Assembly (NCBI GenBank): GCA_934276735.1
Contig: CAKQTG010000001.1
Span: forward strand, 224,455 to 288,454
DNA from: an uncultured Alphaproteobacteria bacterium
GTDB lineage: Bacteria > Pseudomonadota > Alphaproteobacteria > Rs-D84
Direction: 5' to 3'
DNA length: 64,000 bases
The position numbers were made by a program, and so were the translations under genes. Of the stretch, positions 34,411 through 40,364 are shown piece after piece. Positions within the stretch are counted from its first letter, which is position 1. Each line of letters starts with the position of its first letter. The notes beneath the pieces are model-generated. The model was not told where the DNA came from. It worked only from the letters and a program-made list of their open reading frames with translations, and ran no database searches.

Positions 34411-35322
34411 ATGAAATTATCCAGAACGTTTGCATTGGCTGATATTGTGTTGCGTGCGCACGTGTTAAATCCGCTGTGGCGGTCGCGTGACGTGCGCCGT
34501 CAGCATCGTTGTGATGTTGCAGCGACGGCGATTCCGCGGTATATGGCACGGTATGTGCCAGCACCGGGAACGATTCCAGAAACTGCGCCAATTCACGATG
34601 ACAAAAATGAAAAAATTTGGACATTGTGGTTGCAGGGCGAAGACAAAGCGCCACCGTTGGTCAAGGCGTGTTTCCGCAGTATTCGTAAAAACTGCAAACA
34701 AGAATTGGTTGTGTTGGATGAAAACACAATTTGGGATTACATCACGTTGCCCCCAGAAATTGTTGCAAAACGCAAAGCGGGCCAGATAAAGCATGCGCAC
34801 TTTGCTGATATTTGTCGTGTGGAATTATTATATGAGCATGGTGGTATTTGGTTGGATTCAACAGCCTTTGCAACCGCCCCAATTCCAAAAAATATCATAG
34901 ACCAGGATTTCTTTGTCTATATGGCCGGGCATAACGTTGGCAGTCCATACAGTTTTATTCAGAACTGTTTTATTCGTGCGCGTCGTGGGGCATATCTGTT
35001 GGCCGCCTGGCGACAAACGATATTAAATTTCTGGCTGGCCGAACCACGCGAATTTGACTATTTTATGCACCAGTTGATGTTCAAGGCATTGGTTCAGCAT
35101 GACCCGATTGCAAAAAAATATTTTGATGCAATGCCACATATTGACCAAGACCCAACGCACGCACTGTGGTGGTCAATCGCAAACGAACCATACAGTAAAA
35201 AACTGTTTGATAAATATACATCGGGTGCGTTTTTTCAGAAAACTGCATATAACAGCCCATGGGCCAAAAATCCTATCCCGGGCAGTGTTGCCGATGAAAT
35301 GATAAATCACATGAATAAATAA
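34411..35322 (+). CDS. Caps_synth/GT32-like glycosyltransferase (DXD sugar-binding region); start possibly internal (about 34543)
   Basis: IWTLWLQGEDKAPPLVKACFRSIRKNC ... HFADICRVELLYEHGGIWLDSTAF matches the capsular polysaccharide synthesis / Gly_transf_sug pattern. Confidence 0.6.
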   Translation: MKLSRTFALADIVLRAHVLNPLWRSRDVRRQHRCDVAATAIPRYMARYVPAPGTIPETAPIHDDKNEKIWTLWLQGEDKAPPLVKACFRSIRKNCKQELVVLDENTIWDYITLPPEIVAKRKAGQIKHAHFADICRVELLYEHGGIWLDSTAFATAPIPKNIIDQDFFVYMAGHNVGSPYSFIQNCFIRARRGAYLLAAWRQTILNFWLAEPREFDYFMHQLMFKALVQHDPIAKKYFDAMPHIDQDPTHALWWSIANEPYSKKLFDKYTSGAFFQKTAYNSPWAKNPIPGSVADEMINHMNK

Positions 35323-35336
35323 AAATAAAGGAATAT

Positions 35337-36374
35337 TTGATGCCTGCAATTTCTGTAATAATACCGGTATACAATGTAGAAAAGTATTTACGCAGATGTC
35401 TGGACAGTGTTTTAAATCAGACATTTCAAGATTGGGAAGCGATTTGTGTCAATGACGGCAGTCCAGATGGTTCTGCCGTCATTTTGTCTGAATACGCTGC
35501 GCGTGATTCCAGATTTAAAATTGTGAACAAGGAAAATGGTGGCCTGTCTGATGCGCGTAATGCCGGCATGGCGGTCGCCACAGGTAAATATATTTTGTAT
35601 CTGGACAGTGATGATTTTATTCATCCCCAGACAATGGAAATTACTCACTATTTGGCAATGCGTGATGGTTCGGATATTGTGTCATTTACATATGACCGAA
35701 TTTATCGACCCCAGTTGATGGTGCGACATATGTTGCGTATGGATACAGATTCTGTGGTGCCAGAACGTATGCATAAAAAATATGATGTGGCGCGTATAAA
35801 AACACTGGTAACTGATGATGTATACAGATATGCAACTGAACGTGCGCACAACGCGTTTAACCCGAAACGCAAGTGGTTGATTAAACATTGCCAGGTATGG
35901 AAAAATCTGTATCGTCGTGAATTGATTGCAGATACGCCGTTTATCAAGGGAATATTGTTTGAAGATTTTCCGTGGTGGTCCGAAGTGATGTTGAAAAACC
36001 CGCGTGTGACTATCGCGCCATTGCCGTTATATTTCTATGTCCCGAATTTTGGCGGAATTGTTTTGTCGTCCAAACAGTTGAAGATTATGCAAAGTCTGTG
36101 CACCGGTATTCGCGCGTCGTATGAATTATACAGGGACAAGGCCACCCCATACCAGATGGATATGTGGTCGCGCAAATTCCGTTGGTATTTCATTAAATGG
36201 GCATACCGCAAAATTAAATATTTGGACAATATTTCAGACGTTGAAACGGCCCAGAAATACTTTGTTGAATTGCGTGCATGTGGCGCACTGGACAATCCGC
36301 CATTTGCATGGGCGCATAAAATAAAGTGTAAAATTGCAAAATTTATAAAATGTGGGTGTTGCAATGCAAAATAA
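35337..36374 (+). CDS. family 2 glycosyltransferase (GT-A), copy 1
   Basis: ISVIIPVYNVEKYLRRCLDSVLNQTFQDWEAICVNDGSPDGS ... YLDSDDF. Confidence 0.8.
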   Translation: MMPAISVIIPVYNVEKYLRRCLDSVLNQTFQDWEAICVNDGSPDGSAVILSEYAARDSRFKIVNKENGGLSDARNAGMAVATGKYILYLDSDDFIHPQTMEITHYLAMRDGSDIVSFTYDRIYRPQLMVRHMLRMDTDSVVPERMHKKYDVARIKTLVTDDVYRYATERAHNAFNPKRKWLIKHCQVWKNLYRRELIADTPFIKGILFEDFPWWSEVMLKNPRVTIAPLPLYFYVPNFGGIVLSSKQLKIMQSLCTGIRASYELYRDKATPYQMDMWSRKFRWYFIKWAYRKIKYLDNISDVETAQKYFVELRACGALDNPPFAWAHKIKCKIAKFIKCGCCNAK

Positions 36375-38252: not shown

Positions 38253-39094
38253 ATTCCCTCGGTCAAGATTTTGTGCACGCTGTGTGCGATGTTTCGATAT
38301 ATTATTTTAATTGGATTTCGTGTCAAAAGCCAGTCTATATATTTTTCGCCGTATGTGGCGCGTGCACTGGATACGATTGCGTCACGCGCGTCGGGCGAAA
38401 TATGATTTAAAACATATAAAATTTGTCGGCCCAATGCACCGCGATGACGGGGCATGGCAACCTTTTTCATAAATGGCATACCGCGTCGATACAGGCGTTT
38501 TACATCGTTATACACACTGCGCCCACGGCACGTATATATGCATTGCCATGTTAAATTGTGTTCGGTTATCATGCGGGAAAATCCCTGTTCATACAGGCGC
38601 GTGATTGTTCCCTTGTCAACCTGTTTGGTAACGCCACGCATAAATTCGTCATACCACGGGGATAAAAATACAGATTTGTGCATACCGATAAACCACGATT
38701 GAATATGTGGGTGGGTTTTATGCGGATTGCATACAATCCCAAACGCGGCCGCGGACATATGTTCCATTTTATCAAATGTATCGGTTAAATCCACCAGTGG
38801 CCCATATACAGAATCATTTACCATATATACGAAATCGTATTTATTTAAAATCCCCGCATCTGCGGCATAGATGTATGCACGCTTGTATGAGCCGAAATCA
38901 TATTCGCCATGACGATGCGCGGTTGCATTCAGAACATATGGTGCCAATTTTTGCAATTCGGCGTCACTGCAATCAGAATCCATACACAGCACAATATCGC
39001 CAAATTTGGCCAAAGACCGAACATAATACACCAACGCATCATCAACCACGCCATGTGCATTATATCCGGCAAACAGGAATAAACGTCTTGTCAT
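38249..39094 (-). CDS. putative glycosyltransferase, RgpF-like motif (NDSVYGP)
   Basis: VLCMDSDCSD and FVYMVNDSVYGPL motifs; ATGA overlap with downstream gene. Confidence 0.45.
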   Translation of the reverse strand: MTRRLFLFAGYNAHGVVDDALVYYVRSLAKFGDIVLCMDSDCSDAELQKLAPYVLNATAHRHGEYDFGSYKRAYIYAADAGILNKYDFVYMVNDSVYGPLVDLTDTFDKMEHMSAAAFGIVCNPHKTHPHIQSWFIGMHKSVFLSPWYDEFMRGVTKQVDKGTITRLYEQGFSRMITEHNLTWQCIYTCRGRSVYNDVKRLYRRGMPFMKKVAMPRHRGALGRQILYVLNHISPDARDAIVSSARATYGEKYIDWLLTRNPIKIIYRNIAHSVHKILTEGI

Positions 39095-39140
39095 TGTTTG
39101 AATTTTTCCCTATGGTTATTTACATACAATTTACACTGTA

Positions 39141-40364
39141 ATGAGGAATTTTTCAACAATGGATTGCGCAGGTATAAAAATATATGGCCCAGATGAATAT
39201 GCACGCTATGTGGTGGCGACGACCCAGAATATAAAATTTGCGCCTGCGCCATCGGTCGTGCATGTGCCTGGGGCGACGGTGTGGCCGCTGGGCAAACCGT
39301 ATGAGCATGGTGTATATGACGGGGCGGGGCAATTCGTTGCGGCGTCAAATATTGTGATTCGACCACGTGCGAACCAGCGTCACGCATGTCACACTGCGCA
39401 CCAGTATATAGATGAATATGTTTTATTCTTGGGGAATTTACATCATCATTTTGGTCATGTATTGCTGGAACGTATGACACGTGCATGGGCGTTGCTGTCG
39501 GATAAATATAAAAATATGAAATGCGTCATCGTGTATAATTCTGCGGCTGATAATATCCCAGAATATTATCTGGAATTTCTGGGCGCGTTGGGTGTCAGGC
39601 GCGATGATATTATCGTTATAAAATCGCCCACGCGTTTCCGTAATGTATATGTTCCTGAATTGGCCCAGGGACCAAATTTTACCACGGACGCATTTGCAAA
39701 AACATTTGATGCAATCGCAAATTCTGTGCCGGACAACGATGTTAAATATGACCGCGTGTATGTATCGCGTGGCGCGCTGGCCATGCGTCGCACATTTGGG
39801 GAACGCGCGGTCCAATCGGTATTTCAGCGAAATGGTTTTCATGTGATTTATCCAGAAACCATGCCAATACGTCAACAAATTGCGATTATAAAAAATTGCC
39901 ACACGTTGGCGGGGTGTGCCGGGACTGCGTTACATCTGGCATTGTTTATGCGGCCCGGGGGCACAGTTATCCAGATAAAACGTAATTCAAAAAATGCTGA
40001 TAACGTTGGACATCAGTTTTTGGTGAATCAAACCAAACATTTGAATTCTGTATTTGTTTGGGCATCGGTCGAAGATACGCCAACCGAACATTTTTGCCAA
40101 CAGCCCCAGATAATTGGCGTTGGTAAATATATGCAACAATTCATGGATGACGCCGGACTGAAATATACATCGGCAGATACCGTGATGGACGCGTCCGAGT
40201 GGACAGAATACAAAAACGCATGGCGGCAATATCGGCGCGAACATGGCGCGTTGTCACGTGTAAAGCATACGCTGGTCAAGGTATTGGCGTGCGCGGTCCC
40301 GGGACGTAACAATCGCGCGGCGTTTCGAAATTATATGAAACGCGCGTTGGGAATATCAAAATAA
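39141..40364 (+). CDS. glycosyltransferase family 61 / DUF563 protein
   Basis: HHFGHVLLERMTRAW core motif and C-terminal IKNCHTLAGCAGTALHLALFMRPGGTVIQI. Confidence 0.7.
   Translation: MRNFSTMDCAGIKIYGPDEYARYVVATTQNIKFAPAPSVVHVPGATVWPLGKPYEHGVYDGAGQFVAASNIVIRPRANQRHACHTAHQYIDEYVLFLGNLHHHFGHVLLERMTRAWALLSDKYKNMKCVIVYNSAADNIPEYYLEFLGALGVRRDDIIVIKSPTRFRNVYVPELAQGPNFTTDAFAKTFDAIANSVPDNDVKYDRVYVSRGALAMRRTFGERAVQSVFQRNGFHVIYPETMPIRQQIAIIKNCHTLAGCAGTALHLALFMRPGGTVIQIKRNSKNADNVGHQFLVNQTKHLNSVFVWASVEDTPTEHFCQQPQIIGVGKYMQQFMDDAGLKYTSADTVMDASEWTEYKNAWRQYRREHGALSRVKHTLVKVLACAVPGRNNRAAFRNYMKRALGISK

Follow-up and report, generated by a model that had tools for sequence, protein, structure and literature searches.

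A conserved glycosyltransferase locus between recA and typA in Candidatus Enterousia that resembles lipooligosaccharide outer-core loci

In Acinetobacter baumannii, lipooligosaccharide (LOS) has an outer core (OC) that is encoded by a locus between ilvE and aspS that consists mainly of gtrOC glycosyltransferase genes, includes the Caps_synth-family GtrOC27/33 and sometimes Glf, and diversifies as single genes are replaced, with recombination patches that reach into adjacent genes (PMC4172580, PMC10327509). Here we describe a locus of comparable design in an uncultured gut alphaproteobacterium of the Candidatus Enterousia lineage, at positions 34411-40364 of a 64-kb stretch of contig CAKQTG010000001.1 (the window, by which we mean the whole of that stretch). 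This interval is the gap between recA and typA and is entirely occupied by six intact glycosyltransferase (GT) open reading frames (ORFs) on both strands, here called g1 to g6, as established from the ORF list and Pfam. We favor, with moderate confidence and by analogy, the reading that it is a lineage-specific glycan-extension locus of Ca. Enterousia of the LOS outer-core type.

Judged by gene content and arrangement, the A. baumannii OC locus appears to be the closest analogue. Both are GT clusters placed between two housekeeping genes without Wzx, Wzy, or an exporter, both have conserved and variable arms, and both draw on Caps_synth, GT2, GT4, and the occasional Glf, with single genes replaced by recombination that reaches into adjacent genes. 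They differ in that the Enterousia locus is flanked by recA and typA, lacks GT25, Mito_fiss_Elm1, and polysaccharide deacetylase genes, conserves GT61, short RgpF-N-type, and Glyco_tranf_2_4 enzymes, and carries Stealth, GT6, and GT92 cassettes; moreover, a solved LOS structure corresponds to A. baumannii OCL1, whereas the product and acceptor of the Enterousia locus are predicted from its genes. What is new is the conserved set of GT61, short RgpF-type, Glyco_tranf_2_4, and Caps_synth enzymes together with its ultra-reduced gut alphaproteobacterial host; the kind of locus is already known, and the finding opens no new category of system.

In Campylobacter jejuni, Neisseria (lgt), and Haemophilus (lic/lgt), the LOS loci likewise hold strain-variable sets of soluble GTs, which in those organisms extend the lipid A-core directly. 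Host-mimicry cassettes are known from these loci, and GT6 and LicA-like kinase genes occur in some Enterousia species. The Campylobacter locus is framed by waaC/waaF, whereas the Enterousia locus has no linked inner-core genes. Enterobacterial waa (rfa) loci share with it a GT2 enzyme (WaaH/YibD-like, best match PRK10073), GT8, and HtrL_YibB-like proteins in or near the cluster, but the GT9 heptosyltransferase, WaaA, WaaP/Y kinase, and WaaL genes that are clustered in waa-type loci occur neither in the Enterousia locus of the window nor in any related locus. Protein O-glycosylation loci such as Neisseria pgl and Bacteroides lfg are also conserved multi-GT clusters of host-associated bacteria, but there a PglL-type oligosaccharyltransferase (OTase) acts on an undecaprenyl-diphosphate-linked glycan, and a priming transferase and a flippase are needed as well; none of these enzymes was found in or near the Enterousia locus. 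Finally, g5 has the N-terminal GT-A domain of RgpF, known from the streptococcal rhamnan Rgp/Gac systems, but the locus has no rml genes, RgpC/D ATP-binding cassette (ABC) transporter, or GacO/RgpG priming enzyme.

Six glycosyltransferases between recA and typA

Over the 9.5 kb compared (window 33001-42500), the DNA is 100% identical to a 484-kb human-gut metagenome scaffold (ERZ28614899 scaffold_5). Matches to an alignment of the GT61 protein among GTDB species representatives place the window among metagenome-assembled genomes (MAGs) that bear the names Candidatus Enterousia, uncultured Alphaproteobacteria, or Rickettsiales; nearest to it is the Hadza MAG CAKQSE01, whose g6 is 94% identical. 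Enterousia is assigned in published work to the order Rs-D84, has genomes of 0.75-1.0 Mb, and lacks flagella, the TCA cycle, respiration, and several glycolytic enzymes, for which its authors proposed a partner-dependent lifestyle; GTs, lipopolysaccharide (LPS), and the cell surface as such go unmentioned in that genome analysis (PMC12306168).

The locus is bounded on the left by recA (33310-34386, + strand; RecA_N/RecA_C Pfam matches on the identical public contig) and on the right by the housekeeping gene typA/bipA (40388-42220, - strand; GTP_EFTU/BipA_C matches). An earlier interpretation made from the letters of the DNA alone (the sequence-only reading) had placed six GT genes on both strands here and assigned them to Caps_synth/GT32-like, two GT2, GT2_4-like, RgpF-like, and GT61 families; gene count, coordinates, and families all stand, as all six Pfam assignments exceed the gathering score and the two GT2 genes are paralogous. 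Gene calls on the public contig start g2, g3, and g6 later than the ORF list by one, four, and six codons, respectively. DxD-type motifs occur among the six proteins, none of which has a transmembrane (TM)-like segment. Ratios of nonsynonymous to synonymous substitution rates (dN/dS) against three relatives are 0.03-0.18 for all six genes, the exception being g6 against the most distant of them (L027; loci of relatives carry L numbers) at 0.31, where dS is saturated. These low ratios show that the six genes are real, functional, and under purifying selection.

The first gene, g1 (34411-35322, + strand, 303 aa), belongs to Caps_synth (PF05704, 2.4e-58; GT32-like, GT-A clan) and also gives a weak match to the GT32-type Gly_transf_sug family. 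It is followed by g2 (35337-36374, + strand, 345 aa), a GT2 enzyme (Glycos_transf_2, PF00535, 1e-37) with a DSD motif at residue 90, and by g3 (36352-37383, + strand, 343 aa; PF00535, 1.4e-38), a GT2 paralogue of g2 with 51% identity (BLASTP 3e-119). On the opposite strand, g4 (37407-38252, - strand, 281 aa) is a GT-A enzyme of the Glyco_tranf_2_4 family (PF13704, 2e-11) with a DCD motif at residue 100, and its homologues fall into 42 clusters (50% identity) at E <= 1e-30 and 652 at E <= 1e-10; an exhaustive search of representatives with g4, followed by look-up of the cluster names, returned no named relative. Its neighbour g5 (38249-39094, - strand) is also 281 aa long, and the possibility that the two are paralogues was ruled out, their sequences being unrelated.

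RgpF (PF05045, 1.2e-15) is matched by g5 over profile positions 1-197 of 503 only, so that the full-length, two-part RgpF architecture is absent; on this sequence evidence we regard g5 as a member of the RgpF domain family and not as an RgpF orthologue. Its AlphaFold2 model (pLDDT 94.6) comprises a single GT-A domain that resembles GT-A proteins only generically, glycogenin and GfsA among them. Among its 1056 homologues at E <= 0.001, the 120 listed are 57-96% identical and are unnamed metagenome proteins or proteins of Alphaproteobacteria/Pseudomonadota MAGs.

The last gene, g6 (39141-40364, + strand, 407 aa), is assigned to Glyco_transf_61 (PF04577, GT61/DUF563) at 6e-17, with 62.6 bits against a cut-off of 27, and the sole significant PDB match of its AlphaFold2 model (pLDDT 91) is a solved GT61 enzyme, POMGNT2 (E 2e-8, TM-score 0.45-0.51). 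POMGNT2 transfers N-acetylglucosamine onto a mannose residue, not onto a protein side chain. Nearly all matches in the homologue searches with g6 and g5 are unnamed proteins of the same lineage, and distant GT61 homologues (25-31% identity; Aquisalinus and a Pseudomonadota MAG) lie amid unrelated housekeeping genes and are uninformative on function. Sequence searches of the PDB with g1, g4, g5, and g6 gave no significant match, and g2 matched only generic GT2 N-domains. In NCBIfam none of the six genes has an equivalog-level match, the best being PRK10073 with 134 bits for g2 and 124 for g3 against a cut-off of 423.

The gene order is compact. The recA stop codon and the g1 start are separated by 24 nt without predicted structure (dG 0), g1 and g2 by 14 nt, g2 and g3 overlap, and g4 and g5 overlap by 4 nt. 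Between the convergent g3 and g4 lies a bidirectional intrinsic terminator (37382-37408; AAAAACGGGGC-GUU-GCCCCGUUUUUUU, dG -16.2 kcal/mol, z -4.0), preceded by an A5 run and followed by a T7 run, and between the convergent g6 and typA is a hairpin terminator (40367-40386; dG -13.5 kcal/mol, z -3.5) whose strong T-tract is confined to the typA strand. The divergent g5 and g6 are separated by 46 nt (39095-39140) with promoter-like hexamers on both strands. The hairpins, spacers, and overlaps thus predict three transcription units, recA-g1-g2-g3, g5-g4, and g6, in the first of which recA is probably the leading gene in the window's clade. The view that the locus is bounded by terminators therefore holds at its right end but not at its left, where the 24 nt are unstructured, and it had missed the internal terminator. 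When the spacer between recA and g1 (34387-34410 in the window) is compared with that of loci L016-L084, it measures 12-24 nt and lacks structure throughout the window's clade (∼20 species), but in ∼25 other species it extends over 55-190 nt and folds into a stable hairpin (-16 to -41 kcal/mol), from which it would seem that the GT genes became fused to the recA transcript in one clade.

Conservation, variable slots, and recombination

Synteny was mapped by tblastn in 49 complete and ∼7 partial species-representative loci of Ca. Enterousia. All share the order MFS (major facilitator superfamily transporter) > recA > g1 > g2 > [slot A] < g4 < g5 [slot B] > g6 [slot C] < typA, with five conserved GTs (g1, g2, g4, g5, and g6) and, in the 49 complete loci, recA and typA as flanks. 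The flanking genes are 88-99% (recA) and 85-99% (typA) identical to those of the window. Orthologues of g1 lie immediately 3' of recA in at least 49 species, are 54-97% identical, and, like those of g2 (55-96%), are kept in all related loci, with dN/dS of 0.03-0.09 for g1 and 0.07 for g2. Conserved orthologues of g4 (56-96%; dN/dS 0.07) and of g5 (45-97%) are found across the lineage, and g6 is the most divergent of the conserved GTs at 35-94% identity, mostly ∼35-48%, versus 85-99% for typA. Because synteny is kept while GT identities fall below those of recA and typA, the five conserved GTs are old residents that evolve faster than their neighbors.

This pattern bears directly on the designation of the block as an island. 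Were it a recently acquired genomic island, its function might be unrelated to the host envelope or it might be mere cargo, and the use of both strands, the terminator hairpins, and the strain-variable GT content could be cited in favor of such an origin. However, the GC content of the block (0.448) is within ∼1.2 standard deviations of the regional value, 0.464 +/- 0.013 when taken in 6-kb windows, its borders carry neither an integrase nor a tRNA nor repeats, the block shows no compositional sign of horizontal transfer, its genes are under purifying selection, and it is syntenic in at least 49 species. Recent acquisition is thus effectively refuted and we give it almost no credence. With normal GC and synteny across the whole Ca. 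Enterousia/Rs-D84 lineage, the block is vertically inherited with exchange of cassettes, and the term island is misleading.

Cassette exchange is concentrated in the three slots. Between recA and the housekeeping gene that follows, the loci hold 84 extra ORFs; these were clustered, and representatives of each cluster were compared with Pfam. Slot A, occupied by g3 in the window, holds a GT4 gene in 19 species, a g3-like GT2 in 14, Stealth in 10, and Glf plus GT2 in one, and is empty in five; this Glf (L047) is the sole precursor gene seen among the 49 loci. Slot B, which is the empty g5-g6 spacer in the window, elsewhere holds GT2, GT92, GT6, GT8, or HtrL-like genes. Taken together, slots B and C contain GT2, GT92/GT2_4, GT6 (three species), GT8 (two), HtrL_YibB-like proteins (three), a hexapeptide acyltransferase, a few secreted proteins, and, in one species, two LicA/choline-kinase-like proteins. 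None of the 84 slot ORFs has more than two TM-like segments and Pfam identifies only soluble GTs or modifying enzymes; priming transferases, flippases, polymerases, ligases, and ABC exporters are absent from them in all 49 species.

The top NCBIfam match of the slot GT8 is an LPS 3-alpha-galactosyltransferase, although GT8, GT6, LicA-like, and HtrL_YibB-like proteins all score below equivalog cut-offs. All four of these families have LPS/LOS members, which is a point in favor of the LOS reading. The GT6 cassette stands next to GT8 and comes near its NCBIfam cut-off, with 230 versus 250 bits (L033 7973-9844; L074; L046 11238-12772, including the LicA-like cases). Since the GT6 family includes blood-group-type transferases, the GT6 and LicA-like cassettes hint, by analogy, at host mimicry of a blood-group-like or phosphocholine type.

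Variation extends to closely related strains. A Hadza strain (L002) is 97.8% identical to the window from recA to g5, but window positions 39166-40286 are deleted, leaving the two ends of g6, and g6 is also truncated in L084; this gene is apparently dispensable in some strains. In strain L003, identity to the window reaches 99.5% from g4 to the right but only 87% in g2, and a GT4 gene replaces g3. The break in identity falls at 37382; to its left, the g2 of L003 shares 95% identity with the CAKQSE01 gene, and the GT4 cassette is 88% identical to the cassette of another species. Synonymous divergence is similarly mosaic, with dS against L017 of 0.6-0.8 for g1-g3 and 0.1-0.2 for g4-g6, and the reverse against L016. 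As the dS mosaic and the L003 break both fall at the internal terminator (37382-37408), this element is the recombination boundary, with left and right arms recombining independently. Allelic replacement is indicated in two close relatives, L027 and L044, in which typA is 97% and g4 94% identical, yet g6 only 44-46% and g5 66-68%. The Campylobacter, Neisseria, and Haemophilus loci use phase-variable homopolymer or tetranucleotide tracts, whereas the genes of the Enterousia locus contain no run of eight or more nucleotides (the longest is 7 nt) and no simple repeat of four or more units. Without such tracts, variation proceeds by recombination and deletion rather than by phase variation.

Outside the locus, a second GT61 paralogue (35-40% identity) is present in some species (L063 9995-12086; L076 9103-11182; L064/L066; L067/L078). 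It adjoins lpxI in two loci, once in tandem with a 17-nt overlap and once convergently, and in others it lies beside phage-like genes or in a second cluster made up of GT2, GT4, NUDIX, GT4, and GT61 genes. Its neighbors in L064/L066 were considered as waaA-msbA-lpxK, which we rejected, as they are genes for a phage portal protein, DnaB, a helix-turn-helix regulator, and a terminase.

Acceptor and export route of the predicted glycan

LOS-type cores are assembled on lipid A-Kdo (3-deoxy-D-manno-octulosonic acid) at the cytoplasmic face, flipped by MsbA, and exported by the Lpt system. By analogy, we propose that the six soluble, cytoplasm-facing GTs would add sugars sequentially to lipid A-Kdo(-inner core) on the cytoplasmic side of the inner membrane, using common nucleotide sugars as donors, and that MsbA would then flip the completed glycolipid for export via Lpt. 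The products of g1, g2, g4, g5, and g6 would build a conserved backbone, to which the slot genes (g3 here; GT4, Stealth, GT6, GT8, GT92, Glf, or a LicA-like kinase elsewhere) may add species- and strain-specific decorations. Lipid A-core as the acceptor, the donor sugars, the sequence in which the enzymes act, and the route of export are all inferred; the argument for an LOS outer core comes from the GT-only make-up, the fixed housekeeping site, the coexistence of conserved and strain-variable portions, and the presence of LPS machinery in the lineage. Because MsbA and Lpt would handle export, no dedicated Wzx, Wzy, WaaL, or ABC exporter would be needed, in keeping with a cluster of soluble GTs and modifying enzymes that lacks a priming transferase, flippase, polymerase, ligase, and exporter. 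An important role in the envelope is further argued by the low dN/dS ratios and by retention of the locus in genomes of <1 Mb.

Evidence for lipid A synthesis and Lpt export comes from LptF/G (47410-48468 in the window), from PagL, and from LpxI, which is found across the lineage. A gene for the lipid A 3-O-deacylase PagL lies ∼6 kb to the left of the window (L094 18288-18851) and another at L009 13811-14377, indicating that the lipid A of the lineage is probably remodelled. Around the locus we searched ∼80 kb, and ∼100 kb of a ∼0.9-Mb genome were viewed in all. Neither the locus nor these ∼80 kb encode Wzx, Wzy, WaaL, an ABC exporter, a priming transferase, or nucleotide-sugar genes, which bears out the absence of Wzx/Wzy, ABC exporter, and precursor genes first recorded by the sequence-only reading. 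The only polytopic proteins encoded in the ∼80 kb are the MFS transporter, a LolC/E-like permease, LptF/G, and a PAP2 phosphatase.

Several observations weigh against an LOS outer core. Sequence links none of the genes in the locus to lipid A-core, as WaaA, GT9, and kinase genes are missing and equivalog-level matches likewise, and RgpF, Stealth, and Caps_synth are best known from undecaprenyl-carrier polymer pathways (rhamnan and capsule). The GT61 paralogue stands next to lpxI in just 2 of 14 second loci, and by comparison with L096 this looks like an insertion, so that the linkage is weak. Lipid A genes are, moreover, scattered in this lineage, lpxI being isolated among unrelated genes, which makes the absence of linked membrane components weaker evidence than in a larger genome.

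The principal alternative is that the product is an undecaprenyl-(pyro)phosphate-linked oligo- or polysaccharide (O-antigen, capsule, or protein O-glycan) whose membrane components are encoded elsewhere. Clusters for capsule, O-antigen, and rhamnan typically contain Caps_synth, RgpF, Stealth, GT2, and GT4 enzymes, genes of linked function lie dispersed in the lineage, as the solitary lpxI illustrates, and the PAP2 protein encoded 15 kb away has weak similarity to undecaprenyl-diphosphatase, although peptidoglycan synthesis requires such an enzyme anyway. Against this, 49 species with varied slots have recruited not one membrane component, and none lies in the ∼80 kb around the window locus. 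The gene complement of a Wzx/Wzy- or ABC-dependent O-antigen or capsule locus is thus absent from the locus in all 49 species, and five GTs are conserved order-wide, whereas O-antigen and capsule loci usually swap wholesale. An OTase-like (Wzy_C) protein was not seen in any sampled region. We regard an undecaprenyl-linked product as less likely than an LOS outer core, but as its main competitor.

Glycosylation of surface proteins, one of two functions offered by the sequence-only reading, finds no specific support: the PglL/PglB-type OTase and flippase of general protein O-glycosylation occur neither in the locus nor in the 80-kb surroundings, and the one fold match, POMGNT2, acts on a sugar. 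Flagellin is not an option since the lineage lacks flagella (PMC12306168). That proposal had also leaned on proximity to lipoprotein and outer membrane protein genes, but the nearest ORFs with signal peptides are at least 16 kb from the locus. Its other suggestion, a core-oligosaccharide module, is the better supported, given GT-only content in 49 species, fixed flanks, conserved and variable arms, gain and loss between strains, and LPS machinery. Conservation with waa-type core loci in relatives, the observation it had named as counter-evidence, was not found, since GT9, WaaA, and WaaL domains occur in no related locus.

Quite unlikely, in our estimation, is action on another acceptor at the cytoplasmic face, either a glycosyl-diacylglycerol-type glycolipid flipped by an MFS protein or proteins glycosylated directly in the cytoplasm. 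The GTs are all soluble and the MFS gene (32047-33231) is found upstream of recA in all species; LtaA, which flips a glycolipid in Staphylococcus aureus, provides a precedent for such a role. However, recA intervenes between the MFS and GT genes, the MFS protein has merely generic similarity to drug and phosphoglycerate transporters, and its linkage is uninformative because the whole neighborhood (mltA, dciA, MFS, recA) is syntenic. From five to nine different GTs one would expect a complex hetero-oligosaccharide, and such a product would be unusual for membrane glycolipids or cytoplasmic protein glycosylation, and there is no linked target protein or repeat-rich adhesin.

The LOS outer-core reading can be pressed further, into a doubtful but specific form. 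The locus might constitute the entire post-Kdo core pathway of a heptose-free Rs-D84 LOS, built by GT61, short RgpF-type, Caps_synth/GT32, and Glyco_tranf_2_4 enzymes, families never shown to act on lipid A-core, with the three slots (GT6, Stealth sugar-phosphate, and LicA-like) serving as the main device for strain-level surface variation and for mimicry of host or partner.

Neighboring features and significance

Several features of the surroundings were recorded in passing. Between typA and serS (42386-43400, + strand) are two ORFs of 185 and 145 aa without a family match; in relatives they are 26-39% identical or missing, between flanks of 70-99%, making this a second fast-evolving spot beside the GT locus. 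A restriction-modification pair (GmrSD_N/HNH endonuclease and EcoRI-type methylase) is inserted between a DnaJ-like gene and trxB in L002 (975-3122), at a site corresponding to window ∼45750-45890, and is missing from the window. Close strain L006 lacks the lipoprotein-like 539-aa ORF at 16283-17902, whose two upstream neighbors differ in length (window 14759-17902), and has an 86-aa ORF in place of the DUF559 gene at 6959-7459. Two apparent gene fusions were noted, a 589-aa FtsA/PilM-type and ribulose-phosphate 3-epimerase (FtsA-Rpe) protein just upstream of ftsQ (8050-9819, - strand) and a 669-aa protein with YbeY, LNT_N, and CN_hydrolase domains (apolipoprotein N-acyltransferase) ∼3-5 kb past the right end of the window on its own contig (L095 5624-7633). 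Near lpxI in L096 (2269-4416), T7-like capsid genes (Phage_capsid_2 and Phage_T7_Capsid) lie amid housekeeping genes and may represent either the remains of a prophage or an Enterousia cluster of the gene-transfer-agent-like kind.

Candidatus Enterousia is a widespread, uncultured gut lineage with genomes of <1 Mb that may depend on a partner organism. The locus takes up ∼0.7% of such a genome and is retained in every species examined. It is the clearest strain-variable surface determinant seen in this analysis and is usable as a typing marker, for which amplicons could be anchored in the flanking recA and typA genes. The six genes are a compact enzyme set for heterologous expression, which could reveal bacterial roles of GT61 and short RgpF-type enzymes, and for the lineage itself the locus points to likely targets of phages and of host immunity.

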